Source: an uncultured Alphaproteobacteria bacterium
Lineage (GTDB): Bacteria; Pseudomonadota; Alphaproteobacteria; RF32; CAG-239
Length of the DNA: 64,000 nt
Direction of reading: 5' to 3'
Assembly: GCA_934229625.1 (NCBI GenBank)
Contig: CAKQDU010000001.1
Span: 83,078-147,077 of the forward strand
The position numbers and the translations under genes were made by a program. The notes under the pieces were generated by a model, which searched no databases, was not told the origin of the DNA, and saw only the letters and a list, made by a program, of their open reading frames with translations. This document shows, piece after piece, positions 1,729-59,745 of the stretch (position 1 is the first letter of the stretch; the number at the start of each line of letters is the position of its first letter).

Positions 1729-2196
1729 TTAATCTATATTACCAAGCAGGCGGTTTTTAACCATATCACCAACTTTTATATTGTTAGCTTTAACCTGACC
1801 AGCGTTTAGTTCCAGCACAGCGCGTGGGCGTTTCGGAGGATAAATTCCGGTTGTAGAAAACGGTTCGGCGTTTTCGTAGATATAGAAAATTTCTCCGTTT
1901 TCATCCAAAAACAACATATCCAGAGAAATAATTGTATCTTTCATCCACATGGCAACTTGCATATCCTGCGGAACAATTGTCACATCTAAAATCATTCCTG
2001 CGTTTTCGGACATAGAGCTGCGTCCCATTAAACCATGATACAAAGTCTCTTTTGTGTCAGCCACCTCAACATCATATTCATATTGTTTTTCGCCGGATTG
2101 AATAATCAATTTTTCTGTGGTGTTGTCCTTTTTTTCTGAGCAGGCAGAAAACAAAACTAAAGCCGAAAAAGCCATAACTTTTAATAACTTAAACAT
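1729..2196 (-). CDS. DUF192 (COG1430) periplasmic protein with lipoprotein-like signal peptide
   Basis: 155 aa. LFSACSEKK lipobox-like N-terminus. DMLFLDENGEI, PKRPRAVLELNAG and GDMV segments are typical of DUF192. Confidence 0.55.
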   Translation of the reverse strand: MFKLLKVMAFSALVLFSACSEKKDNTTEKLIIQSGEKQYEYDVEVADTKETLYHGLMGRSSMSENAGMILDVTIVPQDMQVAMWMKDTIISLDMLFLDENGEIFYIYENAEPFSTTGIYPPKRPRAVLELNAGQVKANNIKVGDMVKNRLLGNID

Positions 2197-2347
2197 AATC
2201 GCTCCTTAGTCAGTATTAAACATTACTATACAGTATAAAGAAATTTTTTGCTAAATTCAATGATAAAATTTGTTATAAAATAAATTTTTAAGCTTGCCAG
2301 AAAAGCTGATTTTTATTAAAATGCCCTAAATTAACAGAGGTGGAGAT

Positions 2348-2848
2348 ATGAATATGAAAACTCTTGGAACGCTGTTTTTATCAATTTTGGTGTTATCCGG
2401 TTGCGCAGATTTGCTTAACGGACGTTTTTGCGCTTATTCTCAGACAAAAATCAGTCCGATAGTGCATACCAGAAAAATGCCGAAAATCAACCGGCTTGCC
2501 GCTGTCATTTATTTTGCCGATGGCAGTTCGAAATTAACATCTGACGAAAAGAAAATTATAGCGGAAATTGCGCAAAAGGCTAAAAAACTGAATGCTGATT
2601 TAAAAGTTATAGGTCATGCATCATCTCATACCAGACCAACTACATTGGTTGAGCATACCATGATAAATTTAGGAATTTCAGGCCGCCGCGCCGAAGCTGT
2701 GGTAAGAAGTCTGGCGCAATCCGGTGTACCTCTGCATAAAATGCGTTATGAGGCATTGTCCGACAGCAGACCGGCTGTGCCGGAAATAAACGCTAAAGCT
2801 GCGGCAATGAATCGTCGTGTCGAAATTTTTTACATTTATCAGGAATAA
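2348..2848 (+). CDS. OmpA-family (Pal-like) lipoprotein
   Basis: Signal peptide with LSGC lipobox. C-terminal OmpA-like domain (GHASSHTRPTT...LGISGRRAEAVV...NRRVEIF). RBS GAGGTGGAG. Confidence 0.7.
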   Translation: MNMKTLGTLFLSILVLSGCADLLNGRFCAYSQTKISPIVHTRKMPKINRLAAVIYFADGSSKLTSDEKKIIAEIAQKAKKLNADLKVIGHASSHTRPTTLVEHTMINLGISGRRAEAVVRSLAQSGVPLHKMRYEALSDSRPAVPEINAKAAAMNRRVEIFYIYQE

Positions 2849-2857
2849 AAATTTTAA

Positions 2858-4618
2858 ATGGATAATCAAAAAATATCTTTAGGAGGCAATATTTGGAAAT
2901 TAGCGGCGGCTGATGACGGTTTGGTCGAAAGAATGTCGTTGTCATATAATCTGCCTGCTGTTTTGGCTCGTTTGCTTTGTGTGCGTAAAATATCATTTGA
3001 TGAAGTGAATGATTTCATCAACCCTAAACTACAAAATCTGATGCCGGACCCCTATGTTCTGAAAGATATGCAAAAGGCAGTCGAGCGCGTGGCTCTCGCT
3101 GTTGAAAATAATGAAAAAATTGCGATTATCGGCGATTATGATGTTGACGGCGCCACTTCTACTTCTGAGTTGGTTCGCTTTTTTAGAGCCGTCGGAATAA
3201 ATCCTCAAGTTCATATTCCGAGCCGCGAAGAAGGATATGGTCCGAGCGATTTGGCTTTCGGCGAGTTTGAACGGGAAGGCGCGAAACTCGTTATCACAAT
3301 AGATTGCGGAACAACGGCGTTTGATGTATTGAATCGGGCGGCGCAGAAAGGCTTTGAAATTATAGTTATAGACCATCATGAAGCAGAGGCAAAATTACCA
3401 GATGTTTATGCGGTCATAAATCCAAAACGTTTGGATGAAGATAATCAATATCCATATTTGTCATATATGTCAGCTGTCGGTGTCGGTTTTATGTTTTTGG
3501 TGGCCTTAAACAGAAAATTGCGCGATAGCGGATTTTATAAAAATTCTCCGTCTCCTGAACTGAAAAATCTGTTGGATTTGGTGGCGTTGGGAACCGTGTG
3601 CGATGTTGTGCCTCTGTTGGGATTAAATCGAGCCTATGTTCGACAGGGCTTAAAAATTATGGCTCAGCAAAATAATTTGGGGTTAAAAAGCCTTCTCAAA
3701 TCTGTTCAGACAGATAGCATGCCGACAGCATATCACTTAGGTTTTGTCTTGGGACCGCGTATAAACGCATGTGGCAGAGTAGGCGATGCGTCTTTGGGTA
3801 GCCGTTTGCTTTGCACCGAAAATGAGGCAGAGGCGCAAATGCTGGCCGAAAAATTCAATACGCTTAACGCCGAGCGAAAAGATATTGAAAACTATGTGCT
3901 ATTGAAGGCTATAGAACAAATCGAAGGACAGGTGCAGGAATATCCCATAGCTTTTGCCTATGGCGATGATTGGCATCAGGGGGTGATTGGCATAGTCGCC
4001 GGAAAGCTTAAAGAACGCTATAATGTGCCGTCATTTGTGATGTCAGTTGAACCAGATGAAGTTAAAGGTTCTGCGCGTTCTATAGAGGGAATTGATTTAG
4101 GAGCCTTGATTATTGCCGCCAAAGAAAAAGGTGTGATAACCGGCGGCGGCGGTCATATTATGGCGGCAGGTTTTTCTTTGACAAAAGAACAAATACCGGC
4201 ATTTAAAAAATTTGTTGGCGAATATGTTGAAGAACATTTGGGAAAAGAAAAAATTGCTCCGGTCTTAAATGTTGATTTAGCAATCGCTTTAAGCGGTGTC
4301 ACAGAGAACTTTGCCGACAGTTTGTCAATGCTTGAGCCTTATGGGGCAGGCAATCCCGAACCTCTGATAATGATAAAAAATGTAAACATAAATCGGCCTA
4401 AACCCGTAGGCAGCGGACATATAAGCTGCTTTTTAGGCTCTCCGTACGGCGGAAGTTTGAAGGCCATAGCCTTTAGAGTTGCGGATAATGACATAGGTAA
4501 TGCGATGCTGAATAACAATGCCGAGATGTTTGATGTGGTCGGACAAATAAAAACTGATATATGGCAGGGACGAAAAAAAATTCAGATGATTATCAATGAT
4601 ATTAGAAGAGTGGAATAA
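2858..4618 (+). CDS. recJ: single-stranded-DNA-specific exonuclease RecJ
   Basis: 586 aa. DHH motif IAIIGDYDVDGATSTS, DHHA1 GGGGHIMAAGF, and the RecJ C-terminal OB region. Confidence 0.9.
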   Translation: MDNQKISLGGNIWKLAAADDGLVERMSLSYNLPAVLARLLCVRKISFDEVNDFINPKLQNLMPDPYVLKDMQKAVERVALAVENNEKIAIIGDYDVDGATSTSELVRFFRAVGINPQVHIPSREEGYGPSDLAFGEFEREGAKLVITIDCGTTAFDVLNRAAQKGFEIIVIDHHEAEAKLPDVYAVINPKRLDEDNQYPYLSYMSAVGVGFMFLVALNRKLRDSGFYKNSPSPELKNLLDLVALGTVCDVVPLLGLNRAYVRQGLKIMAQQNNLGLKSLLKSVQTDSMPTAYHLGFVLGPRINACGRVGDASLGSRLLCTENEAEAQMLAEKFNTLNAERKDIENYVLLKAIEQIEGQVQEYPIAFAYGDDWHQGVIGIVAGKLKERYNVPSFVMSVEPDEVKGSARSIEGIDLGALIIAAKEKGVITGGGGHIMAAGFSLTKEQIPAFKKFVGEYVEEHLGKEKIAPVLNVDLAIALSGVTENFADSLSMLEPYGAGNPEPLIMIKNVNINRPKPVGSGHISCFLGSPYGGSLKAIAFRVADNDIGNAMLNNNAEMFDVVGQIKTDIWQGRKKIQMIINDIRRVE

Positions 4619-5283
4619 TGAAAGAAAAAAAAATAGAAGAAGCATCAAAAAAAGTCGGCAGTAAAATTAAAAGTTATTTTTTTACCGGCATTGTCGTAAC
4701 AGCTCCGGTTGCCATTACTGTTTATATGTCTTATCATCTGCTGATATGGATAAACAATGTCACAAGCCGCTTGGTTCCCCAGCAATGGTCAATCGGCGAT
4801 TTTGTGCCGTACGCGGTTCCGGGTGCGGGTTTAATTTTACTGATTTTTTCTATGATTGTTATCGGTATGCTTACAACCGGTTATGTCGGTAAGTTTTTTG
4901 TGCGTCTATGGGAAGCTTTGGTGCAGAAAATGCCTATAGTATCCAGTATTTATTCACTTATGAAACAAATTTTTGAAACATTTTTATCTCAAAAAACACG
5001 CTCGTTCAGTAAAGTTGTTTTGGTAGAATATCCGCGCAGAGGGCTATGGACAATTGCCTTTGTCAGTAAAGATGAAACCGGCGGAGAAGTCGATGAAAAG
5101 ATAAAAAGTAAAACACTCAGCATTTTTGTACCGACAACACCGAACCCTACTTCCGGATTTTTGATTTTTGTCCCTGAAAATGATGTGATTAAGTTGGATA
5201 TGAGTGTTGAAGACGGCATAAAATATGTGATATCTTGCGGTATTGTCACACCAACAGAACTAAAGAATAAGGTGAAAAAATAA
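4618..5283 (+). CDS. DUF502-family membrane protein
   Basis: 221 aa. Two TM helices then MPIVSSIYSLMKQIFET...VVLVEYPRRGLWTIAFV, typical of DUF502. TAATG overlap with recJ. Confidence 0.6.
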   Translation: MKEKKIEEASKKVGSKIKSYFFTGIVVTAPVAITVYMSYHLLIWINNVTSRLVPQQWSIGDFVPYAVPGAGLILLIFSMIVIGMLTTGYVGKFFVRLWEALVQKMPIVSSIYSLMKQIFETFLSQKTRSFSKVVLVEYPRRGLWTIAFVSKDETGGEVDEKIKSKTLSIFVPTTPNPTSGFLIFVPENDVIKLDMSVEDGIKYVISCGIVTPTELKNKVKK

Positions 5284-5825
5284 TGAAAAAAATATTACTG
5301 TCAGCGTTGCTGTTTTTGAGCGTAAGACCGGCAGAAGCCGGAATGTTGACCGATTGGAAAGATTTTTTGGTCGAGGATATCAACACAATCAGATGTATTC
5401 ATAACTATGATATTTATCTGCCTTTTTATGCTTGGCATAACCGTTTGACTTATGATAAAAGCCATATAGATAAATATAATGAAAACGCATGGGGTTTTGG
5501 TTTGGGAATTTCTCGTACAAACAATGAGCAAACCTGGTCCGGACTATATGCTATGGGTTTTAAGGATTCTAACTCGTATTTGGAAACATACTTTGGTTAT
5601 GCTCGCCAATGGAACTGGACCGCGGGCGATGAAAATCAATGGCGAGCCGGCATCGGCTACACATTGGGACTGACACAGCGTCACGAATATGCCTATATTC
5701 CTGTGCCTTTACCTCTGCCATTGTTTGGTGTCGGCTATCGCAATATTAATGTGCAGGCGGCTTATGTGCCTGGGATTAAAAATGACGGCAACGTATTATT
5801 CGTTTTCTCGCGTTTTAGTTTTTAG
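5283..5825 (+). CDS. pagP: lipid A palmitoyltransferase PagP-like outer-membrane beta-barrel
   Basis: Signal peptide. Strong collinear similarity to PagP as recalled from memory (YDKxxxDKYNExxWGFGLGISR...GLYAMGFKDS...YIPVPLPLPLFGVGY...YVPGIKNDGNVLFVFSRFSF). Confidence 0.75.
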   Translation: MKKILLSALLFLSVRPAEAGMLTDWKDFLVEDINTIRCIHNYDIYLPFYAWHNRLTYDKSHIDKYNENAWGFGLGISRTNNEQTWSGLYAMGFKDSNSYLETYFGYARQWNWTAGDENQWRAGIGYTLGLTQRHEYAYIPVPLPLPLFGVGYRNINVQAAYVPGIKNDGNVLFVFSRFSF

Positions 5826-5847
5826 TTGATTTTAAGGAGCAAAAAAT

Positions 5848-6693
5848 ATGGAACAAAAAGTGATTAAAGTCGGTAAAGTTGAGCTTGGTAATAAATTGCC
5901 GCTTGCGATTATTGCCGGTCCATGTCAAATAGAAAGCCGTGAACACGCTATTTTTATTGCTGGTAAAATGGTGGAGATTACCCAGAAATTAGGTGTTCCA
6001 TATATTTTCAAGGCTTCGTTTGATAAAGCTAACCGAACTTCAATAAACGGCGCCCGCGGTGTCGGGTTGGATGAGGGAATGCGTACATTTGAAGAAATCC
6101 GCAAGCTTTATCCTGATTTACCGATTTTAACGGATATACACGAGCGCGAGCAATGTCCTATTGTGGCAAAATATGTTGATATGCTGCAAATTCCGGCGTT
6201 TTTGTGCCGTCAGACCGATTTGGTGGTGGCTGCAGCTAAAACCGGTAAAGTGGTAAATATCAAAAAAGGACAGTTTTTGGCACCGTGGGATGTGAAAAAT
6301 ATTGTGAAAAAAGTTGAAGATTCCGGTAATTTTAATATTTGCGTAACAGAAAGAGGAACAAGTTTCGGATATAACACTTTAGTAACCGATATGCGAGCTT
6401 TTCCGCAAATTGCCAAAGATTGCGGCTATCCGCTGATTTTTGACGCAACTCACTCGGTTCAGCAGCCGGGAGGACTCGGCGGCTGCACCGGCGGTCAGCG
6501 AGAGTTTGCTCCGGTTTTGGCGCGTGCGGCTGTGGCGGTTGGCGTGGCGGCAGTATTTATCGAAACGCATGAAAATCCGGAAAAAGCTTTGTCTGACGGA
6601 CCAAACTCGATTTATCTTTCGGATATGGAAAGAGTTATTGGCGAGCTGATGGCGTTTGATAAGGTTAATAAATCTATCATTCACGAGTATTAA
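5848..6693 (+). CDS. kdsA: 3-deoxy-8-phosphooctulonate synthase
   Basis: 281 aa. AGPCQIES, QIPAFLCRQTDL and FDATHSVQQPGG motifs. RBS AAGGAG. Confidence 0.9.
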   Translation: MEQKVIKVGKVELGNKLPLAIIAGPCQIESREHAIFIAGKMVEITQKLGVPYIFKASFDKANRTSINGARGVGLDEGMRTFEEIRKLYPDLPILTDIHEREQCPIVAKYVDMLQIPAFLCRQTDLVVAAAKTGKVVNIKKGQFLAPWDVKNIVKKVEDSGNFNICVTERGTSFGYNTLVTDMRAFPQIAKDCGYPLIFDATHSVQQPGGLGGCTGGQREFAPVLARAAVAVGVAAVFIETHENPEKALSDGPNSIYLSDMERVIGELMAFDKVNKSIIHEY

Positions 6694-6699
6694 GCCAAA

Positions 6700-7434
6700 A
6701 TGCAGTTCAGCGGCGAGGGATATATAATAAAGCTGAAAAATCACGGCGAAAAGTCGATGATTGCAACTTTAGTATGCCCTGAACACGGGAAAATCGTTGG
6801 TTTTATAAACGGAGCGCACAGTAAACGCAATTTAGGAGTTTTTCAGCTCGGCAACTATATTTCTTTTAATGCCTACGCTCGGGTAGAAGAAAATATGCTG
6901 AGCCTGAAAGGTATTGAGCTGATGGAATCTCATACAGCTGATTTTATGCTTGATACAGATAAGATAGAAGCTTTGTCGTCGCTTTGTCGGCTATTAGATG
7001 TATGTGTTGCCGAAAATGATAATTTAGGACGTTTTTACAAAATAATAGAAGATTTTTTTAAACATATACATAAAGATAATTGGCTGGTATATTATTCATT
7101 TTTTGAATATTATCTGCTGGATTTTTTGGGTGTCGGGCTAGATGTGAGCGAATGCGCTGTAACAGGCAAGACTAATGATTTGTCGTACATCTCGCCCAAA
7201 ACCGGACGAGCGGTGTGCGCTGCTGTTGGTGAGCCGTATAAAGACAAACTCTATGCCTATCCGCACTATATTGTGGATAAAAACTATTGTCCTCAGCGCG
7301 CGGAAGTGGCCGATTTACTGAAAATGACCGGAGTTTTTTTAACAAAAAATTTTTTGTCTGGACATAACTTGCAATTACCGGAAAAACGTGCTAATTTGCT
7401 GAACGTTGTTAAAAAATATCAAATGAAAATGTAG
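6700..7434 (+). CDS. recO: DNA repair protein RecO
   Basis: 244 aa. N-terminal OB-fold pattern with GAHSKRN (compare RecO GARSKRS). Central CAVTG...C zinc-ribbon-like segment. Confidence 0.7.
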   Translation: MQFSGEGYIIKLKNHGEKSMIATLVCPEHGKIVGFINGAHSKRNLGVFQLGNYISFNAYARVEENMLSLKGIELMESHTADFMLDTDKIEALSSLCRLLDVCVAENDNLGRFYKIIEDFFKHIHKDNWLVYYSFFEYYLLDFLGVGLDVSECAVTGKTNDLSYISPKTGRAVCAAVGEPYKDKLYAYPHYIVDKNYCPQRAEVADLLKMTGVFLTKNFLSGHNLQLPEKRANLLNVVKKYQMKM

Positions 7435-7441
7435 GTGAAAA

Positions 7442-9661
7442 ATGGTTGAAGAAAATGCCAAAATAAAAGATGTGCAACTCGGCGAAGAATTGAGCAAACG
7501 TTATCTTTCGTATGCTATGTCAACCATTGTTTCACGTTCTCTGCCGGATGTGCGCGACGGTTTGAAACCTGTTCACCGCCGTTTGATGTATGCCATGCGT
7601 CAGCTGCATTTGGACCCAAAAAACGGTTTTAAAAAATGCGCACGCGTGGTCGGCGATGTTATCGGTAAATATCACCCGCACGGCGATACGGCGGTTTATG
7701 GCGCTATGGTGCGTTTGGCGCAAGATTTTTCGGTGCGCTATCCTTTGGTTGACGGGCAGGGTAACTTTGGTAATATTGACGGCGACGGCGCCGCTGCCAT
7801 GCGTTATACAGAGGCTCGTTTAACCGAATTTGCTATTGATTTGATGGACGGCTTAAACGATGATGCCGTTGATTTTATGGATACGTATGACGGCGAAGAC
7901 AGCGAGCCGGTTGTGATGCCGGCAATGGTGCCAAACTTGCTGTGCAACGGTTCTATGGGTATTGCCGTGGGGATGGCGACCAATATTCCGCCGCATAATC
8001 TGAGCGAAATCAGCGACGCTTTATTGTATTTGATTGAAAATCCTGATTGCGATGACGAACCGCTGGTACGCCGCCTAAAAGGTCCGGACTTTCCGACCGG
8101 AGGAGTGATTGTTGATTCTTTTGACACTATTTTGAATAACTATAAACAAGGCAAGGGAAGTTTTCGTATCCGCGCCAAGTGGACAACCGAAGATTTGGGA
8201 CACGGACAGTATCAAATTGTGGTAACAGAGATTCCGTATCAGGTGATAAAATCTAAACTGATAGAAAAAATCGCCGAATTACTTCTGAATAAAAAACTTC
8301 CGTTTTTAAGCGATGTACGCGATGAATCGGCGCAAGACGTGCGTATTGTGCTGGAGCCTAAAAACCGCACGGTGGACGCCGCCATGCTGATGGAGCAATT
8401 ATTCCGCCAAACCGATTTAGAAGCCAAGTTTAATATGAATATGAACGTGTTGGATTTGGATTGCGTGCCGAGAGTGATGAGTATAAAAGAAGTGCTGCAT
8501 GACTATCTGGTGCATCGCAACGCTGTTTTGCTGCGTAAAATTAAGTTCCGCTTGAGTAAAATCAATGCGCGTTTGGAAATTTTGGAAGGCTATTTAATTG
8601 CTTATTTGAATTTGGACGAGATTATCCGCATAATCCGCGAAGAAGACGAGCCGAAAAAAGTTATGATGGCGGAGTTTAAACTGACTGATAATCAGGCTGA
8701 AGCCATTTTGAATATGAAACTGCGTAACTTGCGCAAGCTTGATGAAGAACAGATTAACGCCGAACATTCCGATTTACTGGAAGAAAAAGCCAATCTGGAA
8801 ATATTGCATAATGATGAGGCGCAGCGCTGGAAGGCTATTGCCGAAGAAATTAAAAAAACTAAAGAAAAATACAGTAAAAAAACGGCATTGGGACGTCGCC
8901 GCACCGAATTTGCCGAAGCTCCGGCGGATATAGATGTTCCGGTGGAAGCGTTGATAGAAAAAGAACCGATTACGGTTATTTTGTCGCAAAAAGGCTGGAT
9001 ACGCTGCATAAAAGGTCATGCCGATTTGAACGATGAGTTTAAGTTTAAAGACGATGACGCGTTGCTCTATGCTTTGCATGCGCAGACTACGGATAAAATT
9101 GTGTTGCTGGATAACAAAGGCAAGTTCTTTAACATTGCCGCTAAAGATATTCCAAGCGGCCGCGGTTTTGGTCAGCCGGTGCGCCTGATGATAGATTTGG
9201 CAAACAATGACGATGTTGTGGCAATGTTTGTATATGAGGCTGGAACAAGCTATTTGATTGCTTCGGACAAAGGCTATGGCTTTATTGTTGATGAAAATCA
9301 TTTACTGGCGCAAACTCGTAACGGGCGTAAAATTATGAATGTCGCCGATGATGAAAATATGAAATTTTGCTTGCCGATGACCGGAGATTATGTGGCTGTT
9401 GTTGGTGAAAATCGTCGTTTACTGGTGTTTAAAGCCGAGGAAATCCCAACTATGGCGCGCGGTCACGGTGTGTTGCTGCAAAAGTATAAGGACGGCAATA
9501 TATCGGATATTCAAATTTTCAAAGGCGAGGACGGTTTCAGCTATAACCGCGCCGGAGGAGTCAGTACCGAAAAAGAGCTTATCGGCTGGCTGGGACACCG
9601 GGCGCAAATCGGTAAAGTCGTACCGTTCGGTTTCCCAAAGAACAACAAGTTTTTGAAATGA
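7442..9661 (+). CDS. parC: DNA topoisomerase IV subunit A
   Basis: 739 aa. Topo IIA A-subunit motifs ([30 protein letters not shown] active-site Tyr region). Length and lack of a GyrA box favour ParC. Confidence 0.85.
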
Positions 9662-9760
9662 AACAATAAATTTTATTCAGCCTGAATGTTTTTTAATGTA
9701 GATTAAATCTTGTTGTAAATTCCCCTTGTTGCTCTATAAAAAGCAATAAGGGGAAAAACG

Positions 9761-10396
9761 TCAAAATTCTAATGATATATTACAATACGCGTTGGAGCTT
9801 TCACAAATTTTACAAGCCTCGTGAATTTCTTCCAATGAGGCTTGGGCAACGCATTTTATTTTCTCGTTGCAATAACTATCGCCATAAAACCATATACTTC
9901 TTCCGGTACCCCAAGCTGATGTTCTAACCGCAAAAACGACAGAGTGTAAAGGTTGTCCGAGATTTTGAAAAATAGAAACACATAGTTTGCTTGAAAAAGC
10001 CGGTGAAAAAAAGGTATCTTTTTTTGAAACTCCTCCGATGTAAAAATTTATTACTAATCTGTTATTGCGAGAAAATATATCAATCAAATTATTTTGACCA
10101 TCTTTTAAACTTTTCCAACCTTCATCATTGATAATCCAAGTTTGCGGTACTAAATTTGCAGCTTGTACATAATCATAAACAGGAACCATAGTATTATCGG
10201 AACTGAGATATTTAAGGTCATTAAGGTGTTCAAGCAATCCATAAATTAAGTAACTGTATTCTTCAATGAGTTTATTGCTTTTATATTTTTCCATGGCTTT
10301 GGAGTAACCGGCAATCCCACCGACGCTTAGTACAGCGATTATAGCAAGTACGCCGAGCATTTCTATCATGGAACGGCCTATTTGATTATATTTCAT
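9761..10396 (-). CDS. type IVb-like prepilin paralog P1 (short leader MKYNQIG, then RSMIEMLGVLAII...)
   Basis: Class III signal peptide with Glu at +5 and hydrophobic alpha1 helix. Conserved EYSYLIYGLLEHL. C-terminal FYGDxxC...CxxC...C motif. RBS AAGGAAG. Confidence 0.7.
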   Translation of the reverse strand: MKYNQIGRSMIEMLGVLAIIAVLSVGGIAGYSKAMEKYKSNKLIEEYSYLIYGLLEHLNDLKYLSSDNTMVPVYDYVQAANLVPQTWIINDEGWKSLKDGQNNLIDIFSRNNRLVINFYIGGVSKKDTFFSPAFSSKLCVSIFQNLGQPLHSVVFAVRTSAWGTGRSIWFYGDSYCNEKIKCVAQASLEEIHEACKICESSNAYCNISLEF

Positions 10397-10742
10397 AATA
10401 ACTTCCTTTCACATTGAAATTACAACAAAAAAGCCGCCGATAAGGCAGCTGGAAGTTCGTAACTACTTACTGTAAAATAGTGTAGCATATTAGCTAAAAG
10501 ATAACATATTTTGCTACCTTCCAGCCGTTAAAGCTAGAAAATTTAACGTCCTAAAGACGTACAGTAATGAGGCTACGACACCCCAGACAGACTATTGCCT
10601 ATCCAAAAGTCATTTTAACGAAATATTACATAAAAGTAAAGATGTTTTTCTTATTACAGCACATTGTTTTAGTAGTTGACTTATGGCGTAAGGCTGGTAT
10701 AGAATAAATGCTGTAATTAAACTAATTTAAGAGGAAAGAAAG

Positions 10743-10799
10743 ATGAAAAATAAGCTAAGCAAAGGTCTCTCTCTCTCTCTGCAAATCCTGAACATCTGA
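10743..10799 (+). CDS. 18-codon mini-ORF containing a (TC)7 tract, strong RBS
   Basis: AAGAGGAAAG SD 8 nt upstream of ATG. (TC)7T at 10766-10780 inside the ORF. Coding status uncertain. Confidence 0.2.
   Translation: MKNKLSKGLSLSLQILNI
10766..10780. repeat. (TC)7 dinucleotide microsatellite
   Basis: tctctctctctctct read directly from sequence. Confidence 0.9.
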
Positions 10800-11009
10800 T
10801 TAAAGGCGCTTTTTCTGCCGTTCAGCACGTTTTTACAGGGTTTGGCAGAAAAATTGATACTTTCGGAAATAACACATTAAAAAATAAAATAACAGGCGGC
10901 ACGTTTCCGCGCTTTTCCACCTCCACTTGCAACGTCATTCTTCGCCGGTACTCCCTGCCGGAAGTACCATGGCGGAGAATCCATAATGTCATTGCGTATG
11001 CAATGGCAA

Positions 11010-11568
11010 GTTGCTGGATAACAAAGGCAAGTTCTTTAACATTGCCGCTAAAGATATTCCAAGCGGCCGCGGTTTTGGTCAGCCGGTGCGCCTGATGATA
11101 GATTTGGCAAACAATGACGATGTTGTGGCAATGTTTGTATATGAGGCTGGAACAAGCTATTTGATTGCTTCGGACAAAGGCTATGGCTTTATTGTTGATG
11201 AAAATCATTTACTGGCGCAAACTCGTAACGGGCGTAAAATTATGAATGTCGCCGATGATGAAAATATGAAATTTTGCTTGCCGATGACCGGAGATTATGT
11301 GGCTGTTGTTGGTGAAAATCGTCGTTTACTGGTGTTTAAAGCCGAGGAAATCCCAACTATGGCGCGCGGTCACGGTGTGTTGCTGCAAAAGTATAAGGAC
11401 GGCAATATATCGGATATTCAAATTTTCAAAGGCGAGGACGGTTTCAGCTATAACCGCGCCGGCGGAGTCAGTACCGAAAAAGAGCTTATTGGTTGGTTGG
11501 GACACCGCGCGCAGATTGGAAAAGTTGTTCCATTCGGATTTCCTAAAACAAACAAATTTTTCAAATAA
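11010..11568 (+). pseudogene. duplicated 3' fragment of parC (C-terminal 185 codons, no own start)
   Basis: 11010-11462 is identical to parC 9103-9555. The last ~100 bp carry mostly synonymous divergence. No ribosome-binding site or native start. Confidence 0.75.
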
Positions 11569-11577
11569 AATAAAAAA

Positions 11578-11612
11578 GTCTGCATTCTGTGCGCAGATTT
11601 TTTTTAAATTAT
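11578..11612 (+). terminator. candidate intrinsic terminator after the parC fragment
   Basis: gtctgc...gcagat hairpin followed by TTTTTTTT. Confidence 0.4.
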
Positions 11613-11625
11613 AATAAATCTGTGC

Positions 11626-12153
11626 TTGACAAAAATTAACAATATAGCTACTCTGACACATACAGAATGTATTATTAACTTTATATTTTTATTTATGGGA
11701 CAGTTATCTAAATTTGCGACGCCTATGCCTTTGGTATATGCTCATGGCAACAATCTTTTGATTGTTTCGGAATTGGATTTGTCAAATAAGGACAGTCTGA
11801 TTGGTATTAAACTGGACAGATTTACCTTGTCTTTAACGCAGGACAGGGTTTCTTGGTATAACGCCTATTGGATGATTGAGCAGAATTGCTTGCTGCACAA
11901 AACTCCGCGTTTGCCTGATGAAACAGACTGCTACGATATGATGCGCAATGTCGATAGAATCAATGCTACATTGCAAATTATCAAAGAACAGGGGATAAAG
12001 GCCGATTTGCTTGATGTAAATGGTATTTATTGGCTTCGTAATGAGTTTTCTCATATTAAATCATTTGCCTATATGATGAGAGAGAGACTTAAAACTTTGC
12101 GCGACAAGTTTGATGAAGATTCTTGTCTGGCAAGAGTGATTTGGTACAACTGA
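11626..12153 (+). CDS. hypothetical protein (true start possibly 11695 or 11722)
   Basis: 175-aa ORF divergent from the Y-family polymerase gene. No recognisable domain. Confidence 0.35.
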   Translation: MTKINNIATLTHTECIINFIFLFMGQLSKFATPMPLVYAHGNNLLIVSELDLSNKDSLIGIKLDRFTLSLTQDRVSWYNAYWMIEQNCLLHKTPRLPDETDCYDMMRNVDRINATLQIIKEQGIKADLLDVNGIYWLRNEFSHIKSFAYMMRERLKTLRDKFDEDSCLARVIWYN

Positions 12154-12161
12154 TTTTTCAA

Positions 12162-12200
12162 AAACTTTCGGTATATTCAAATACCGGAAGTTTTTTTGTA
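12162..12200. terminator. bidirectional hairpin terminator between convergent genes
   Basis: cttccggtat...ataccggaag perfect stem flanked by A-run and T-run. Confidence 0.6.
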
Positions 12201-12224
12201 GACAATCATAAAATGTTATTTTTA

Positions 12225-13376
12225 TCAAAATAACCCGTTTTTAACTATGTCTTTGCCAAATTTTTGTTCCAATTCATCTAAAACCTTGCTTATTTTATCA
12301 TCGTGATATTCCGGTTCGGCAAATAAAAACGGTTGAAAATCGGAACGGCTGAGCAGATGTTCCAGCATTACGCCGCTGCTGCGATATAAAACATTCGGAA
12401 GATATATTTTAGGCAACAGGCTTTGCGCCGCATTAAACAATTCTTGCTCTCCGTTGCAGGGTTGCGGTAATTTGGCATAAGTGCTGTAGACCTGAAAATC
12501 TTTGGTTCTTAACATAATTCCTACGACATTGCAAAAACAATCTTCTTCACGCATTTTACGTCCGGCGCAATGAACATGATGTTTTATAGAAGCGCGCAAG
12601 ACAGCCATATCAGAAGTGAATTTACTTAAAAAAGAAGTGCTTTGAATAGATTTCGGCAGACTTTTTAGAGTTTTAATTTTGTTTACGGCGTATCCTTGTA
12701 ATTCATATTTAAGATTCAGGCCATTTATACCCAAATTTTTACGTATCCAGCTATCATTTTGTTTTATAAATTCCAAACAGTTGAAAATTCCGTATATTTT
12801 CATTTTAGCTGTATTTTTCTGTCCAAAACCGCACACATCTTCAAGCGAAGTTTTTTCTAAAACAGATAATAGAGACGCCTGATTGATTAAGTAAACACCG
12901 CCGTTGTTTTTAGCTTTATCACTAGCCAGCTTAGCCAATAGTTTTGAACTGCTAACCCCGACAGAAACCGGAATTTTGCATTTATTCCAAACAGTTTGCC
13001 GTATATCTGTTGCCAGTTCGGTAAAATCTTTTTTATACAGTTTATCCAAGCCTTGCAGATTTAAATAAGCTTCATCTATAGAACAAACCTCTACATCGGG
13101 TGTAAATTCTCTTAAACAATTCATAACTTTCGCGGAGTATTCTTCATAACGTGAATGCCGTCCTTTCAGATAAATTGCGGATGGAAATTTTTTTTTAGCC
13201 ATAAAATATGGTTCGCCCATTTTTATTCCCAAAGTTTTAGCTTCTCTTGAACGAGAAACTACACAGCCGTTTCCGCCTGATATAACGCATAATGCTTTAC
13301 CTTGTAAATCGGGATTATCAGCCTGTTCGCAAGAAACAAAAAAACTATCGCAGTCCACTAATGCAATTTTTGACAT
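12225..13376 (-). CDS. Y-family DNA polymerase (UmuC/DinB-like)
   Basis: 383 aa. IALVDCDSFFVSCE, GNGCVVSRSREAK..GIKMGEPYF and SIDEAYLNL catalytic-core motifs. The N-terminus resembles UmuC more than DinB. Confidence 0.8.
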   Translation of the reverse strand: MSKIALVDCDSFFVSCEQADNPDLQGKALCVISGGNGCVVSRSREAKTLGIKMGEPYFMAKKKFPSAIYLKGRHSRYEEYSAKVMNCLREFTPDVEVCSIDEAYLNLQGLDKLYKKDFTELATDIRQTVWNKCKIPVSVGVSSSKLLAKLASDKAKNNGGVYLINQASLLSVLEKTSLEDVCGFGQKNTAKMKIYGIFNCLEFIKQNDSWIRKNLGINGLNLKYELQGYAVNKIKTLKSLPKSIQSTSFLSKFTSDMAVLRASIKHHVHCAGRKMREEDCFCNVVGIMLRTKDFQVYSTYAKLPQPCNGEQELFNAAQSLLPKIYLPNVLYRSSGVMLEHLLSRSDFQPFLFAEPEYHDDKISKVLDELEQKFGKDIVKNGLF

Positions 13377-13502
13377 GTTACACCTATGTTCTAATTTTGT
13401 TCTATAATAAACAGAATATAGCGGATGTCAAGTTTTGTTTTATTTTTGTATAAATATTCATTAAATATATCAATAAATCAATAAGCTATTGTGTGTCAAA
13501 AA

Positions 13503-13680
13503 GTGTGTAAAAAAAACGACCGTTTAAAATGGACAGTTTTTAGGCTGTTTTTTATAGTCTAGCAAAGGTTGCCGGAATTTGCAATAACTTTTTATATTTG
13601 CGATGTTTTTTGTGGTTTTGTAAGAATTATCAGCGTCTTATTCTGAGTGTGTAAAAATAACGGTCGTTTTTTTTACACAA
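13503..13680 (+). repeat. 178-bp conserved upstream element bounded by 22-bp inverted repeats (gtgtgtaaaaaaaacgaccgtt / aacggtcgttttttttacacaa); second copy reverse-complemented at 59746-59923
   Basis: Direct comparison of the two loci gives about 99% identity. The right end also forms a perfect hairpin just upstream of the RBS. Confidence 0.8.
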
Positions 13681-13695
13681 TTGAGGAGGAATAAG

Positions 13696-14424
13696 ATGTT
13701 TGATGGTATAGAATTTTTCAAAGGAAAGAGCAGAGGTGAGGGTTCTGGAGTGCTTTGCGTTGCTCGCAATGACGTTTGCTCTGCCGGTCGGTCAATGATA
13801 GAAATGCTCGGCGTATTGGCAATTGTCGGCGTGTTAAGCGTTGGCGGCATCGCCGGCTACTCCAAAGCGATGGAAAAGTTTAAGCTTAGTAAGGCTCTGG
13901 ATGAATACAGCTATCTTATTTATGGGTTGCTGGAACACTTAGATGAAATTAAATATTCCACTAAATCAGGAGATGGAAATGCTACTCCTGTTGTGGAATT
14001 AGCTAACAATTTGAATTTGGTTCCTCCGACATGGACAATGATAGCAAACAATCTTGATGTTCGTCATAAAAATTTATTTGAAGACCCATATAACAATCTT
14101 TTATCTATTTACTCAAAAGACGGAAATTTGCGTTTTGATTTTATTTTAGGCGGTTCGCAATTTCCGGACGAAGGCTCTTGGATAACTGAAAATTTTTCAA
14201 CCAAATTCTGTATGGAATTGGTAAACAATGTTGTCAAACCATTGCATTCTTCTTTGGAATTTTTATTTTTTTACAGGTCAAAAGGAAGCTCATCCACTTT
14301 TTATGGTGATAAAAAGTGTTCTTCCGGCCGCAAATGTTTGAGTGATATCAGTATAAAAGAAGTGTATGATAATTGCAAACGTTGCTCAAAAAAAGAAGTT
14401 TGTTCCGTAACTATAGACTTTTAA
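13696..14424 (+). CDS. type IVb-like prepilin paralog P2 with 31-aa leader
   Basis: Strong SD GAGGAGGA before the ATG at 13696. Leader ends ...CSAG then RSMIEMLGVLAIVGVLSVGG. Conserved EYSYLIYGLLEHL and the C-terminal 5-Cys motif ending TIDF. Confidence 0.7.
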   Translation: MFDGIEFFKGKSRGEGSGVLCVARNDVCSAGRSMIEMLGVLAIVGVLSVGGIAGYSKAMEKFKLSKALDEYSYLIYGLLEHLDEIKYSTKSGDGNATPVVELANNLNLVPPTWTMIANNLDVRHKNLFEDPYNNLLSIYSKDGNLRFDFILGGSQFPDEGSWITENFSTKFCMELVNNVVKPLHSSLEFLFFYRSKGSSSTFYGDKKCSSGRKCLSDISIKEVYDNCKRCSKKEVCSVTIDF

Positions 14425-21443: not shown

Positions 21444-23243
21444 TTGTATATGTATAAGTTTTTGATTTTTTTGAGTGCTTTATGGTGGTGCAACGCGGCA
21501 ATGGCGGCGGAAATTCCGGCGTATGACGAGGCGTGGCTTAAATTGTTGCATTATCATAAAACGCTCGGCGGCTATCGTGGTTTGGTAGAAAATCAGGATT
21601 TTTATATAAGTCCGGACGGACGGGAAAATCCCATTGCAGAATTTGAGGCGGAAATTAAGGCTTTTGCTGATGGAGCAGAAAAGTGCCGTTTTCCGGCAAG
21701 ATTCAATTATTTGAAACAGTTGGGAAAAGTGCAGGGTGATTTAAAAAATTGCAATGATTATCAGCAATTTATGCAAGATGTGCGTCCGAATGGTATTACT
21801 ATTTTGTTTACCAATGCTTATATGAGTAATCCGGCTTCGTTGTTCGGTCATACGCTGGTGCGTATAGATACGGCGCGCAAAGGGACGCAAATGTTAGCGC
21901 ACGGTTCAAATTTTGGGGCGGATTCCGGAACAGAACACGGTGTTATGTTCGCACTCAAAGGCTTATTCGGCGGATATCTTGGAGTATATAGCGTCAGTCC
22001 GTATTGGGAAATAATAAATACCTACAATAATATCGAAAATAGAGATATTTGGGAATATAATCTTAATTTAACAGATGAAGAAAAACAAAAGTTTGTCGAC
22101 CATCTTTACGAAATGCGGCAAGCCAAAATCCGCTACTATTTTTTAAGTAAAAACTGCTCGTATCTGATTTTGGAATTACTGGAGGCGGTGCGCCCGAGTT
22201 TGGAGCTGACCAGACAATATCCGGCGTGGGTAATTCCGTTGGATACGCTCAAAACAATCAATAACGAGCCGAATTTGGTTAAGTCACAAAACTATCGTCC
22301 GGCGCGCTATACGCAAATTCAAAATTTGATAAAAGCAATGAATAAGCAACAATATGCCGCATTTTTGCGCGGTATAAAAGAATATGATTTTACGGCGGAA
22401 AATTTATCAGATGAGGAAAAATCAGCTGTTTATGAGGCGATTTATCAATATTTTCAATATGAATACACCGCTGGAAATATGCCGCTGAAAGAATATCGAA
22501 AGGCTAGTTTCGGCGTGTTGCGCAAACGCAGCGCTTTGCCGATTGGGGAAAAAGTTCAGCCAGTTGGTGAAAATCCGGCGTTGTCGCACGATTCTATGCA
22601 AATATCATTCAGCGGCGGGGCGGAACGCCATAAAAGCTTTGAAGAAGTGGAAATCCGTCCGGCTTATACGGCGTTGACAGATAGCAGTTTCGGATTGGTT
22701 AAAGGGGCGGAAATCAGCGTGATGTCCAGCAAATGGCGCTATTATAACCAATCTCACAAAACTGTTTTGCAAAATTTTGCGCCGATAAAAATTAAATCCT
22801 TAGTGCCGGCGGGCAGGGTGTTTGACCCGATTTCTTATGCCATCGGTGCGGAAATTAAACGCGATTATAATCCGCAGAATTATGATGAAGGTTATGTCGG
22901 TTACGGCTATGGCGGAGTAGGTAAAACCATTGCGTTTCCGGCAAATATTTGGCTTTATGGTTTGCTGAAAGTTAACGGTGCGTACGGCGGTTTTATTCCG
23001 CACAACAGCTGGGGCGGATTGGCGCCGGAAATTGGAATTTTAAAAGATTTTGGCGCGGTGCGGCTGCATTTTAACGCCGAAAAAACATGGGCTACCCGTA
23101 AATTCGGCGACAGGCTGATTTATAAAGCTGCCGCTTCGCTAGGTATAACGGATAATTTATCGCTGGAAATCGGCTATGAGGGAAGTCACAATATTGGCCG
23201 CAACAGCGAAAGCTGGCAGCTTTGGCTGCAAAAAAGCTTCTGA
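21444..23243 (+). CDS. DUF4105 (Lnb N-terminal domain) protein with C-terminal beta-rich domain
   Basis: 599 aa, signal peptide. AWLKLLHYHKT...YISPDGRENP...CRFPARFNYL pattern typical of DUF4105. Confidence 0.5.
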   Translation: MYMYKFLIFLSALWWCNAAMAAEIPAYDEAWLKLLHYHKTLGGYRGLVENQDFYISPDGRENPIAEFEAEIKAFADGAEKCRFPARFNYLKQLGKVQGDLKNCNDYQQFMQDVRPNGITILFTNAYMSNPASLFGHTLVRIDTARKGTQMLAHGSNFGADSGTEHGVMFALKGLFGGYLGVYSVSPYWEIINTYNNIENRDIWEYNLNLTDEEKQKFVDHLYEMRQAKIRYYFLSKNCSYLILELLEAVRPSLELTRQYPAWVIPLDTLKTINNEPNLVKSQNYRPARYTQIQNLIKAMNKQQYAAFLRGIKEYDFTAENLSDEEKSAVYEAIYQYFQYEYTAGNMPLKEYRKASFGVLRKRSALPIGEKVQPVGENPALSHDSMQISFSGGAERHKSFEEVEIRPAYTALTDSSFGLVKGAEISVMSSKWRYYNQSHKTVLQNFAPIKIKSLVPAGRVFDPISYAIGAEIKRDYNPQNYDEGYVGYGYGGVGKTIAFPANIWLYGLLKVNGAYGGFIPHNSWGGLAPEIGILKDFGAVRLHFNAEKTWATRKFGDRLIYKAAASLGITDNLSLEIGYEGSHNIGRNSESWQLWLQKSF

Positions 23244-23249
23244 AATTTC

Positions 23250-23310
23250 TTGACAAAAATTACAAAATAGGATAAATAAAAGACATAATTTTATTTTTAT
23301 GTGTAACTTA
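23250..23310 (+). promoter_or_regulatory. conserved promoter-leader cassette (TTGACA-N17-TAAATA; leader CATAATTTTATTTTTATGT)
   Basis: Sequence identity with the cassettes at 879, 25299 and 26600. Confidence 0.55.
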
Positions 23311-23323
23311 AATTATTTGGCTT

Positions 23324-23794
23324 ATGAATTTTTATCGTAATTTTATGGCTAAGCATGAGGAAAAAATTTCCGGCTTTGAAGTTCTTTTAATGCTTGTTAT
23401 TACCGCATTTTTAGGAGAAATGTTTATTTTTTCCTTGTCTGTGGCGGATAGAACATCTAGCTTGGTTCTTTTTGTGATGCTTGTTTTAAGCTTGGCGTCT
23501 GTTCATTACTTTTGGGTGTTTTTGGCAGACTATAAACAGTTTGGCAAGGATATTGATGAGGCCTGTAAGCAAGCAGAAAAGAAATGGGGCGAGGCTAAGA
23601 AAAAATTTGAAAAAGAAAAGGATGCTGAATTTAGGATTGCATTTAGAAAAATTAAGCTGGATGTGGTTAAGTTTTGTATCTGTTTTCTGCCCGTAGGTTT
23701 GCTCGGGTATAAAGTTGACTGGTTGCCGATTTTTCATAATGTAAATGAATGGCTGAATGTACTGAGCAATATCTTTGTTGGAATTTTAAACTAA
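23324..23794 (+). CDS. small membrane protein, family A copy 1
   Basis: 156 aa. Paralog of 26673-27155, collinear similarity (VLFVMLVLSLASVHYFWVFLADYKQFGK... versus VLFAMLILGLLSIYWFSVFLADNKKFAK...). Confidence 0.5.
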   Translation: MNFYRNFMAKHEEKISGFEVLLMLVITAFLGEMFIFSLSVADRTSSLVLFVMLVLSLASVHYFWVFLADYKQFGKDIDEACKQAEKKWGEAKKKFEKEKDAEFRIAFRKIKLDVVKFCICFLPVGLLGYKVDWLPIFHNVNEWLNVLSNIFVGILN

Positions 23795-23799
23795 ATTTA

Positions 23800-23838
23800 A
23801 AAACTGCGGAGATATAACAATTTCCGCGTTTTTTTATT
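23800..23838 (+). terminator. intrinsic terminator
   Basis: gcggagatataacaatttccgc hairpin plus TTTTTTT. Confidence 0.6.
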
Positions 23839-23845
23839 TTAAAAC

Positions 23846-23910
23846 TTGACAAAATATCAAAATATCTTAGAGTAACTGACATAGTTTTATTTTTATGTAT
23901 AATTTAAATT
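23846..23910 (+). promoter_or_regulatory. variant promoter-leader cassette (TTGACA ... TTTTATTTTTATGT)
   Basis: Shares the -35 element and leader core with the other cassettes. Confidence 0.45.
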
Positions 23911-23918
23911 ATTAAGGT

Positions 23919-24362
23919 ATGAAAAATGTTTTATATGTTTTATTTGTTGGATGGCTTATATATTTAGGCATTCCTATGCTGTTTGTCACAAAATTTGGCA
24001 TTATAGCATTGTTTATTTTTTCTTTTTGTCTTTCGATGTTTATCGTTAGGCTAATTAAAAATAATGAAAAGTACGAGCTGTATTCGGATATTTATGATAA
24101 AATAGAAGCTGCTCGAACTGATTGTATAGATTCAGAAACAAAGATTAAGGAAATTTTGGACGAATATAATCTTAATATTGACGCATTTAAAATTGTCGGT
24201 TTGGAAATATTGAACAGAAAGTCGGAGGCGCGTACTGCTTCTGTAGATAATGAACATGCGATTCTATATACTTTGTTACTTGGGTCGTTATTTGTATTTC
24301 CGGCTATGATTGATGAGCCTTTTACGATTATAAATAAATTTTGGGAATCTGTGATATTTTAG
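23919..24362 (+). CDS. small membrane protein, family B copy 1
   Basis: 147 aa. Paralog of 26099-26545 (shared EKYELYSDIYDK / EKYELYSEVYDK and NLDI motifs). Confidence 0.5.
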   Translation: MKNVLYVLFVGWLIYLGIPMLFVTKFGIIALFIFSFCLSMFIVRLIKNNEKYELYSDIYDKIEAARTDCIDSETKIKEILDEYNLNIDAFKIVGLEILNRKSEARTASVDNEHAILYTLLLGSLFVFPAMIDEPFTIINKFWESVIF

Positions 24363-24480: not shown

Positions 24481-24557
24481 TTGACAAAAAAACAAAGATA
24501 TGTTTAATATAAAATGAATTTTGTATATTTATGTTTAATTTTTAATTCTTTTTTATT
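24481..24557 (+). promoter_or_regulatory. promoter TTGACA-N18-TAATAT plus type-2 leader (TATGTTTAATTTTTAATTCTTTTTTATTATG)
   Basis: The last 36 nt are identical to 25349-25384. Confidence 0.5.
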
Positions 24558-25199
24558 ATGATTGTAAATATTAATGCAAGTGCTGATAGTCCTGTTTATT
24601 TTGAGCTGAACGAAGCTGATGAAATTGTTATCGTCGGTGACAAAAAGGATGAGCTACTACGTTATTATATGGGTAAAAGTTTAAATGGACCTGAAATAAA
24701 ACATCCAACAAGACCGAAATTGTGTGTTGATGACTGTAAGGATTGGCATATTATCGTTACATTTAGATGCACTCAGAATGTTATGGTTAATGGTCTAGTT
24801 GCCGAGTTAACTAATGATATTGTAGTTCATGGTTTAGTTGCTGAGGTAATTAAGGAGTGTTTAAAAAAAGGTTCTTCATTTGATTACAAAGATGAAAATT
24901 TGCATTTTGTGGATGAACAAATACAGTTAAAAAGTAAGGTTGATATTCTTGAAAGATGTGTTAGACGTCTCGCAAAAATGCAAAATAAGGTTAATACTAT
25001 AGAAGGTCATATTGCTGGTTTTGCGCAAATGCAAAATAGAATTAACACACTTGAAAACTGTGTGAAACGTCTTGCGCAAATGCTTAATAAGGTTAATACT
25101 AACAGACGCTCTATTGCAGGTAATATTGATATTCTTGCACGTAAACTCAAGGATATTGAAGATGACCGTAATCACGCATACGATGATTGGCAGAGTTAA
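24558..25199 (+). CDS. coiled-coil protein with two ~35-aa C-terminal repeats
   Basis: 213 aa. Repeats ERCVRRLAKMQNKVNTIEGHIAGFAQMQNRINTL / ENCVKRLAQMLNKVNTNRRSIAGNIDILARKLKDI. Confidence 0.45.
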   Translation: MIVNINASADSPVYFELNEADEIVIVGDKKDELLRYYMGKSLNGPEIKHPTRPKLCVDDCKDWHIIVTFRCTQNVMVNGLVAELTNDIVVHGLVAEVIKECLKKGSSFDYKDENLHFVDEQIQLKSKVDILERCVRRLAKMQNKVNTIEGHIAGFAQMQNRINTLENCVKRLAQMLNKVNTNRRSIAGNIDILARKLKDIEDDRNHAYDDWQS

Positions 25200-25254: not shown

Positions 25255-25289
25255 TTCAAAGAAACTGTGAAGTCATTATGATTTCACAG
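25255..25289 (+). terminator. intrinsic terminator (ctgtgaagtcat / atgatttcacag plus T8); identical copy at 26555-26588
   Basis: Near-perfect 12-bp stem with one mismatch, then TTTTTTTT. Confidence 0.7.
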
Positions 25290-25298
25290 TTTTTTTTG

Positions 25299-25384
25299 TT
25301 TAAAATGATTGACAAAAATTAAAAGCATCGCTAAACTAAATACATAATTTTATATTTATGTTTAATTTTTAATTCTTTTTTATT
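25299..25384 (+). promoter_or_regulatory. conserved promoter-leader cassette (TTGACA-N17-TAAACT) fused to type-2 leader
   Basis: About 110 bp including the upstream terminator is near-identical to 26550-26660. Confidence 0.6.
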
Positions 25385-26545: not shown

Positions 26546-26554
26546 TGATAAAAA

Positions 26555-26588
26555 AACTGTGAAGTCATTATGATTTCACAGTTTTTTT
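26555..26588 (+). terminator. intrinsic terminator, copy of 25255-25289
   Basis: Identical hairpin plus T-run. Confidence 0.7.
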
Positions 26589-26599
26589 GTTTAAAATGA

Positions 26600-26672
26600 T
26601 TGACAAAAATTAAAAATATTACTAAACTAAACGCATAATTTTATTTTTATGTTTTACTCAAATTATTAGCTT
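26600..26672 (+). promoter_or_regulatory. conserved promoter-leader cassette (TTGACA 26600-26605, N17, TAAACT 26623-26628)
   Basis: Identical core to the cassettes at 879 and 25299. Confidence 0.6.
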
Positions 26673-27155: not shown

Positions 27156-27161
27156 ATTCAA

Positions 27162-59730: not shown

Positions 59731-59745
59731 CTTGTTCCTCCTCAA

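Follow-up and report, generated by a model that had tools for sequence, protein, structure and literature searches.

In a 64,000-nucleotide stretch of DNA from an uncultured Alphaproteobacteria bacterium (contig CAKQDU010000001.1, positions 83,078 to 147,077; hereafter the window), the gene parC is followed by a convergent gene for a type IVb pilin-like protein, P1, and both P1 and its upstream DNA lie between two direct copies of the parC 3' end. The locus probably holds a strain-variable foreign insert with a pilin gene, which was joined at parC by one homologous exchange and one illegitimate joint. The insertion is a real and fairly ordinary recombination scar of a known kind, made more interesting by its presence in some strains only and by the hypervariability of the pilin family.

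The intact parC (7442-9661, + strand, 739 aa) was taken from the list of open reading frames (ORFs) and matched Pfam DNA_topoisoIV (E 1e-145) and GyrA_C. Its exact protein is present on 14 public contigs, and its relatives place the window among uncultured Alphaproteobacteria of gut and rumen, a clade known from metagenome-assembled genomes (MAGs). The first copy of a 453-bp repeat, here termed R, lies inside this working gene (9103-9555, +), and the second copy (11010-11462, +) forms the start of a displaced parC fragment. In an ungapped comparison the copies were identical at 453 of 453 positions, as claimed in an earlier note that was made from the sequence of the window, and the identity started abruptly at 9103/11010. 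A perfect repeat of this length is far beyond chance.

The 106 bp that follow copy 1 (tail A, 9556-9661, +) and copy 2 (tail B, 11463-11568, +) showed 20 differences, of which one changes the stop codon (TGA versus TAA), and the encoded peptides differed at two residues (...PKNNKFLK versus ...PKTNKFFK). Analysis by the Nei-Gojobori method gave Sd 16.5, Nd 2.5, pS 0.71, dN 0.03 and a dN/dS of about 0.015, confirming the earlier description of this divergence as mostly synonymous. Near-saturated synonymous change with almost no amino acid change implies that each tail was shaped within a functional parC, the two genes belonging to well-separated lineages, and excludes decay in place of a duplicate. 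The distance between tails A and B was roughly that between species of the clade in this segment. To all the sister species compared, the two tails were 67-85% identical, and the last 105 bp of parC evolved fairly fast without being an outlier. The sister species were uninformative as judges of the ancestral tail, both tails being about 79-85% identical to the closer sisters. Mosaic tails are for the most part no proof of gene conversion, as 'A-like' alleles of some tail B variants also occur in strains without the insert and in sister species, and can be ordinary polymorphism.

The ancestral arrangement was seen in eight sister species (loci L018, L020, L023, L083, L070, L045, L021 and L022; ParC 95-99% identical in amino acid sequence), where parC is directly followed by a homologue of the 175-aa gene located downstream of the insert in the window, with a single parC end and no pilin gene between. 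The segment from copy 2 through tail B and the intergenic region to the 175-aa gene was colinear with these species (83.7% identity over 1141 bp in L018), indicating that copy 2 holds the ancestral position.

The insert is also present in only part of the species itself. Of 22 contigs read that carried the identical 175-aa protein, eight were filled, i.e. contained the insert, and in the 14 empty contigs a 739-aa parC ended 57 bp before the 175-aa gene, with no pilin gene. A check of the empty contigs L098-L101 and L103 at the sequence level gave the order U-R-tail B-175-aa gene, U being the part of parC ahead of R. Among these, L099 (a MEGAHIT contig of 73 kb) runs unbroken through R, indicating that the loop formed by the insert is absent or rare in that sample. 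Tail B, in slightly varying forms, ends the intact parC in the empty-site contigs, which identifies it as the native end and indicates that tail A arrived with P1; this imported tail makes up the final 35 codons and the stop of the intact parC in the window. Tail A was never seen without the insert, and was absent from all empty-site contigs. Sample SAMEA4765572 yielded both a filled assembly (L097) and an empty one (L103), the latter belonging to a different strain background. The earlier note had read the locus as foreign DNA between two copies of the parC 3' end, of which one survives as a parC pseudogene fragment, and had regarded an invariant arrangement in relatives as an argument against this. 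The comparison with genomes lacking the insertion, both in the sister species and in the majority of the same-species contigs, bore out its description and revealed polymorphism within the species.

Filled assemblies were found by looking up the exact ParC, P1 and 185-aa fragment proteins. The order parC (U-R-tail A), P1, S, R, tail B, 175-aa gene, in which S denotes the upstream leader and spacer of P1, recurred in at least 15 gut-metagenome assemblies from Hadza, Nepali and other cohorts, made with different pipelines. The novel junctions are that of R with tail A, and that at 11009/11010. The path from S through R to tail B was crossed by unitig-level MEGAHIT contigs (L108, L111 and L112) and by the Logan contig L115. 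Since the joint at 11009/11010 is not derivable from an uninterrupted parC and recurs widely, a one-off misassembly is excluded.

It is also highly improbable that the duplication is an artefact in the wider sense, present in no single genome and produced when strain variants or a collapsed repeat were threaded together. Such an artefact would agree with the short-read metagenomic origin of all sources and with the length of R, which exceeds that of a read; moreover, the copies are identical by construction in scaffolded contigs, and several contigs break at R or at a (TC)n tract within the insert. However, the joint between R and the 112-bp segment that precedes copy 2 (10898-11009) cannot be derived from an empty-type genome, and it was found in many samples, with three kinds of assembler and in unitig-level contigs. 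Contig L108 links 325A (position in R and base) with tail A, and 82T with the joint, each within one 141-mer as judged from the site spacing. The sole arrangement free of a duplication would be a free 1.9-kb circle without a replication gene. The earlier note had itself allowed for an assembly artefact, against which the recurrence of the junctions in many independent assemblies argues.

In the clone represented by the window, which showed no single-nucleotide polymorphisms (SNPs) in flanks and insert, six third-position sites of R, all synonymous (82, 202, 226, 265, 268 and 325), occurred in at least seven combinations. In scaffolded contigs the combination was always equal in both copies, as expected from either repeat collapse or gene conversion. 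In the MEGAHIT contigs, copy 1 (L108 and L011) had 202G/226C/(265C/268T)/325A, and copy 2 (L108 and L112) had 82T with reference alleles elsewhere. Either the true copies differ at four to six sites (98.7% identity) and were collapsed by the scaffolders, or conversion between the copies is frequent; the 100% identity of the copies in the window may be partly due to repeat collapse. Three private alleles of copy 2 (202A, 226T and 265T) occurred in no empty strain, and their combination in 0 of 13 sister species. These alleles are all synonymous, indicating that R of copy 2 was once part of a working parC in a close relative of about 1% divergence. Recombination between two genomes at within-species distance would fit copy 2 better than self-duplication, and tail A and P1 would first have entered some strain of the species before the present structure formed.

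The insert-specific sequence (9556-11009, 1454 bp) showed 0 substitutions among the filled contigs, apart from the length of the (TC)n tract, while the flanks of these contigs differed by 0.7-1.5%. A uniform insert on diverged flanks indicates that the insert is young relative to the divergence of the strains, and it was probably spread, or kept, by homologous recombination. In the L013/L014 background, which was found independently in two cohorts and differed at 15 of 1301 positions in the right flank, the left boundary of the insert-type sequence was located between repeat positions 499 and 529 and not at 453/454, indicating that the parC junction was reset at least once by homologous recombination. 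The filled contigs L008 and L016 share the flanks of the otherwise empty L098-L100 clone (for L008, 0 differences in 3255 + 1808 bp), which suggests either recent gain or loss within one clone, or chimeric assembly of mixed samples. A further contig, L009/L108 (k141_859408, corresponding to 1729-8029 of the window), was 5-35% diverged to the left of about 8029 in mid-parC; to the right it was near identical for 8 kb; of the 8 differences there, 6 fall on the polymorphic sites of the repeat and 2 lie near 15.2-15.8 kb. This contig may be an inter-lineage recombinant with the filled allele, but was not used as such, as it is possibly a chimeric MEGAHIT contig joined in the conserved parC.

Scarcely credible is an origin by local tandem duplication of the parC end, with divergence in place and later insertion of the pilin gene, or retention of the fragment as a stand-alone ParC C-terminal protein. 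The fragment ORF (11011-11568, +, 185 aa), which comprises only the ParC C-terminus, remains unbroken in all filled assemblies (185-186 aa), and the mostly synonymous differences between the tails would also agree with such an origin or function. However, a saturated tail beside an R of 98.7-100% identity cannot arise in place, and the insert, with 0 SNPs, is too young for ORF intactness to imply selection. The fragment starts with TTG, and neither an upstream in-frame ATG nor a Shine-Dalgarno-like sequence was found on reading the DNA. One lineage has lost the stop codon and the terminator of the fragment, and empty strains manage without it altogether. The lineage in question is L013/L014, in which a 31-bp deletion between two T-runs (11561-11605 of the window) removed the fragment stop codon and the native terminator; the fragment ORF thereby becomes 186 aa and lies 12 bp from the next gene.

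The order of events, the circular intermediate and the excision described here are what we infer from this structure. The ancestral chromosome would have carried parC with tail B, its terminator and the 175-aa gene. DNA from another lineage of the clade, consisting of a parC end (tail A), a convergent P1 and its long upstream leader, would have been joined to it by homologous exchange inside the parC 3' region, with the right limit now at 9555/9556, and by an illegitimate joint at 11009/11010. In the simplest topology, a fragment (R-tail A-P1-S-112 bp) that contained the last ~560 bp of a parC would have been circularised and joined to the resident parC by a single crossover; an event anchored by homology at one end and illegitimate at the far end would be an alternative route to the same product. 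In either case parC would have remained intact with an imported tail, and the native 3' end would have been moved 1.9 kb downstream, 5'-truncated and probably untranslated. Later, the insert would move between strain backgrounds, or its boundaries would shift, by homologous recombination in parC, and recombination between the 453-bp direct repeats would delete 1907 bp and restore the observed empty allele. RecA-dependent deletion between direct repeats is generally expected.

The two ends of the insert differ in kind, the left limit (9555/9556) lying in parC homology and the right joint (11009/11010) abutting 112 bp without parC homology. Homologous recombination alone cannot create the duplication. 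Campbell-type integration, or recombination with DNA from a diverged strain, had been proposed in the earlier note, and is supported by the repeats that flank the insert, by the existence of an empty allele and by the diverged tails. Integration of a circle by the Campbell route, and an event with one homologous and one illegitimate end, are topologically alike and cannot be told apart here. As in Campbell-type integration, direct repeats flank the insert, one gene copy is complete and the other 5'-truncated, and loss between the repeats restores the empty allele. Unlike it, the present case is a natural one, with no vector, no replication origin and no observed circle; in addition, the incoming parC end was about 19% diverged while the repeat is near identical, and the closure at 11009/11010 needs a separate illegitimate event.

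Many phages and integrative conjugative elements integrate at gene 3' ends, including those of tRNA genes. A site-specific integrative element that targeted the parC 3' end and supplied a replacement end, with the repeats as att sites, is nevertheless very unlikely. The layout is that of classic attL/attR, in which the target is completed by an element-borne end and the original end lies at the far side. However, no integrase, recombinase or other enzyme gene was found in or beside the 1.9-kb unit, the ORFs of 9556-11009 being only P1 and a mini-ORF. The identical segment of 453 bp is also far beyond the length of an att core, and the limit of identity varies with the background (454 versus 499-529). 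A search of a plasmid collection gave no match to the insert. Three faecal contigs labelled 'Bacteriophage sp.' matched only in the parC tail or in the conserved pilin 5' end, at about 79%, and provided no evidence of a mobile element.

A similar outcome has been described for Rhs, CdiA and Vibrio type VI secretion effector loci, where displacement of C-termini and orphan fragments were attributed to homology-facilitated illegitimate recombination (PMC5361080). In those loci, as here, a conserved upstream coding region serves as the anchor, a new 3' end is installed together with cargo, and the old 3' end is orphaned downstream, retaining some of the conserved region. Unlike those loci, the anchor here is an essential housekeeping gene, and its two ends, which differ by 2 conservative residue changes, are equivalent in function; these features place the parC locus in no toxin-displacement family. 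The cargo is also different, being an unrelated, oppositely oriented pilin gene with no toxin tip or immunity gene, and there was a single displacement with no array.

In Salmonella Typhimurium, the wzy locus's reversible excision between 113-bp perfect direct repeats has been described, and excision, circles and re-acquisition were shown experimentally (PMC12074656). The wzy locus and the P1 unit are alike in that perfect direct repeats lie on both sides of a gene for a surface structure, some very close relatives have this gene and others lack it, and one repeat copy stays behind at the empty site. They are unlike in that excision of the P1 unit is only inferred, and in that its repeats are duplicated coding sequence and four times longer.

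On this precedent, programmed and reversible pop-out and pop-in may be considered for P1, with the 453-bp repeats acting like attL/attR and the pilin gene lost as a 1.9-kb circle and regained, also from the DNA of neighbours. Such a process is unlikely, as is the switching of a surface or phage-receptor structure at the population level that it would bring about. Equally doubtful is an extended form of this idea, in which the 1.9-kb unit would be a recombinase-free mobile cassette that uses 453 bp of a conserved essential gene as a portable homology arm. It may be imagined, with similar reserve, that this cassette cycles by host homologous recombination and passes as transforming DNA, switching a type IVb pilin (likely an adhesin or phage receptor) population-wide. 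The mosaic SNPs confined to the repeat could then be the footprint of repeated cycles, although this too is improbable. The data that agree with reversible excision are the filled (L008 and L016) and empty (L098-L100) alleles, which are possibly on one clone background; the restriction of variation to R, with up to 6 SNPs in R of the window clone and none in 6.5 kb of flanks plus insert (Fisher p 7e-8); and contig L013, which reads as a tandem or circular permutation. However, the variation confined to R and the L008/L016 contigs are equally explained by collapse or by chimeric assembly of mixed samples. Excision makes no new junction, any more than a circle or a tandem array does, and is hence invisible in assemblies, and nothing shows a rate above that of background RecA-dependent deletion.

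Several points weigh against the origin favoured here, by one homologous exchange and one illegitimate joint. A donor that has tail A or a close P1 was not found; the closest homologue of P1 is 59% identical, and scans of JGI metagenomes for the exact patterns of the 112-bp segment and tail A gave nothing, as this collection does not appear to contain the species. A circular or tandem form was not demonstrated, and contig L013 (S-R-tail A-P1-S-R-tail B) may be an artefact of loop traversal. All public evidence comes from short-read assembly across a 453-bp repeat, and both the identity of the copies and the filled L008/L016 contigs on the L098 clone background could be due to collapse or mixed-strain chimeras. 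Finally, an incoming parC segment as diverged as tail A is at odds with R copies of 98.7-100% identity, and an intermediate step is needed, either a same-species strain that first acquired tail A and P1, or extensive gene conversion. As a candidate donor, locus L046 was rejected; it has a convergent pilin gene 55 bp after parC, but its tail resembles tail A and tail B alike, at about 74% identity. The two nearest non-identical P1 homologues (58-59%) that were looked up adjoin a GyrB/ParE-type gene, in unrelated contexts.

The locus provides a natural example of an uncultured gut bacterium that gains or loses a surface-protein gene by way of foreign DNA anchored in a conserved essential gene, where the incoming DNA supplies a substitute gene end and the repeats left behind allow later loss. 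The filled or empty allele, together with the (TC)n length, may serve as a strain marker for this clade in non-industrialised human gut metagenomes. The results also call for caution, as short-read MAGs can misreport near-identical repeats. If the improbable reversible-cassette idea were true, it would represent a recombinase-free mode of surface variation in a pilin-like family whose more than 3500 proteins are unannotated.

The P1 gene (9761-10396, - strand) codes for a type IVb pilin-like protein of 211 aa. The protein has the leader MKYNQIG followed by RSMIEML, with Glu at +5, and shows the pilin fold, in which a long helix at the N-terminus packs on an antiparallel beta-sheet. Its scores with curated prepilin motif models were below the cut-offs (Pfam N_methyl, E 0.033; TIGR02532, E 0.041). 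In total 3581 homologues were found at E <= 1e-10, all labelled hypothetical, and the N-terminus of the family, G|RSMIEMLGVLAI, was invariant in 50 homologues, which also had conserved cysteines. Compared with the type IVb pilins CofA of CFA/III, TcpA and PilS of S. Typhi, P1 was only 11-14% identical; its leader is short (7 aa), and the mature protein begins with Arg. A scan of ten other genes of the window revealed no pilus assembly gene, all ten being unrelated.

The sequence upstream of P1 (S, 10397-10897, -) was 94.8% identical to 10501-10001 of the sister-species locus L018. The leader (500 bp) and the P1 5' end were 91-95% identical to a pilin locus adjoining rpsL in that species, and the leader was more conserved than neighbouring coding DNA (the parC 3' region had about 88% DNA identity). 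This relates the cassette to a pilin locus of the clade, as does, in another relative (L046), the convergent pilin gene after parC. The leader RNA had a fold z of -4.7, and a terminator-like hairpin (10432-10450) with a U-run lies just before the P1 ribosome-binding site. These features suggest that the leader may be an attenuator or riboswitch-like element; it had no Rfam match, the hits to 9000-14000 (E <= 1) all being chance ones below threshold. In L018 itself, the spacer between two divergent pilin genes (9500-10000) was GC-rich and, by eye, repeat-derived and palindrome-like, with spurious long ORFs. Similar sequence appears to form N-terminal ORF extensions upstream of the pilin genes P2 and P4 of the window.

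Within S, on the strand opposite to P1 and about 370 bp upstream of its start, is the 18-aa mini-ORF (10743-10799, +), which has a strong ribosome-binding site and contains the (TC)7 tract (10766-10779). The tract had n = 7, 8, 9, 10, 11 or 14 across assemblies, with the rest of the insert invariant, and n = 7 in L018. Values of 6, 9 or 12 would extend the mini-ORF to about 118 aa, out of frame into repeat copy 2. The tract looks like a putative contingency repeat. Homology to L018 stopped at 10897, and the 112-bp segment that follows, which ends at the illegitimate joint, had no match in the rest of the window, in loci L001-L096 or in JGI metagenomes.

The intergenic region between the convergent parC and P1 (9662-9760) had no homologue at any fetched sister-species locus. 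The earlier note had stated that only the second parC copy is followed by a terminator. This was correct for the canonical hairpin with T8 (11579-11605, +), the bidirectional native terminator of parC, which follows copy 2 only; copy 1, however, is followed by a 14-bp hairpin at about 9720-9755 (fold z -5.2 on the + strand and -6.0 on the - strand) that has no U-run and is shared with the convergent P1. The genes around the insert are recO, parC, the 175-aa gene (11626-12153, +), which is the native downstream neighbour of parC, and dinB. The 175-aa protein had no Pfam or NCBIfam match.

Five pilin-like paralogues were found in the 64 kb of the window, P1 and those at 13681-14424 (+), 37472-38119 (+), 54341-55126 (-) and 59026-59745 (-). 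Gene P3 ends 2 bp past the stop codon of a 616-aa ORF (with DnaG-primase domains according to the annotation of a related contig), and P4 ends 5 bp after its convergent neighbour, indicating that pilin genes adjoin the 3' ends of housekeeping genes very closely. Self-BLAST revealed no further partial duplications. The upstream regions and 5' ends of P2 (13681-14424) and P4 (59026-59745) form a 448-bp inverted repeat of 89% identity (13499-13946 and 59480-59927). In L098, L100 and L008 the sequence continues after about 13953 at 59927, in the reverse direction, i.e. there is a polymorphism for an inversion of about 45.5 kb with breakpoints in the pilin 5' regions, and L099 has yet another arrangement after dinB.

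A second multi-copy family consists of repeats of about 40-120 bp with 76-95% identity, located at 827-945, 23243-23922, 24521-24564, 25257-25391 and 26550-27164. These repeats lie upstream of small paralogous ORFs for which related contigs carry no Pfam annotation; two such ORFs, 23324-23794 and 26673-27155, were 67% identical over 576 bp.

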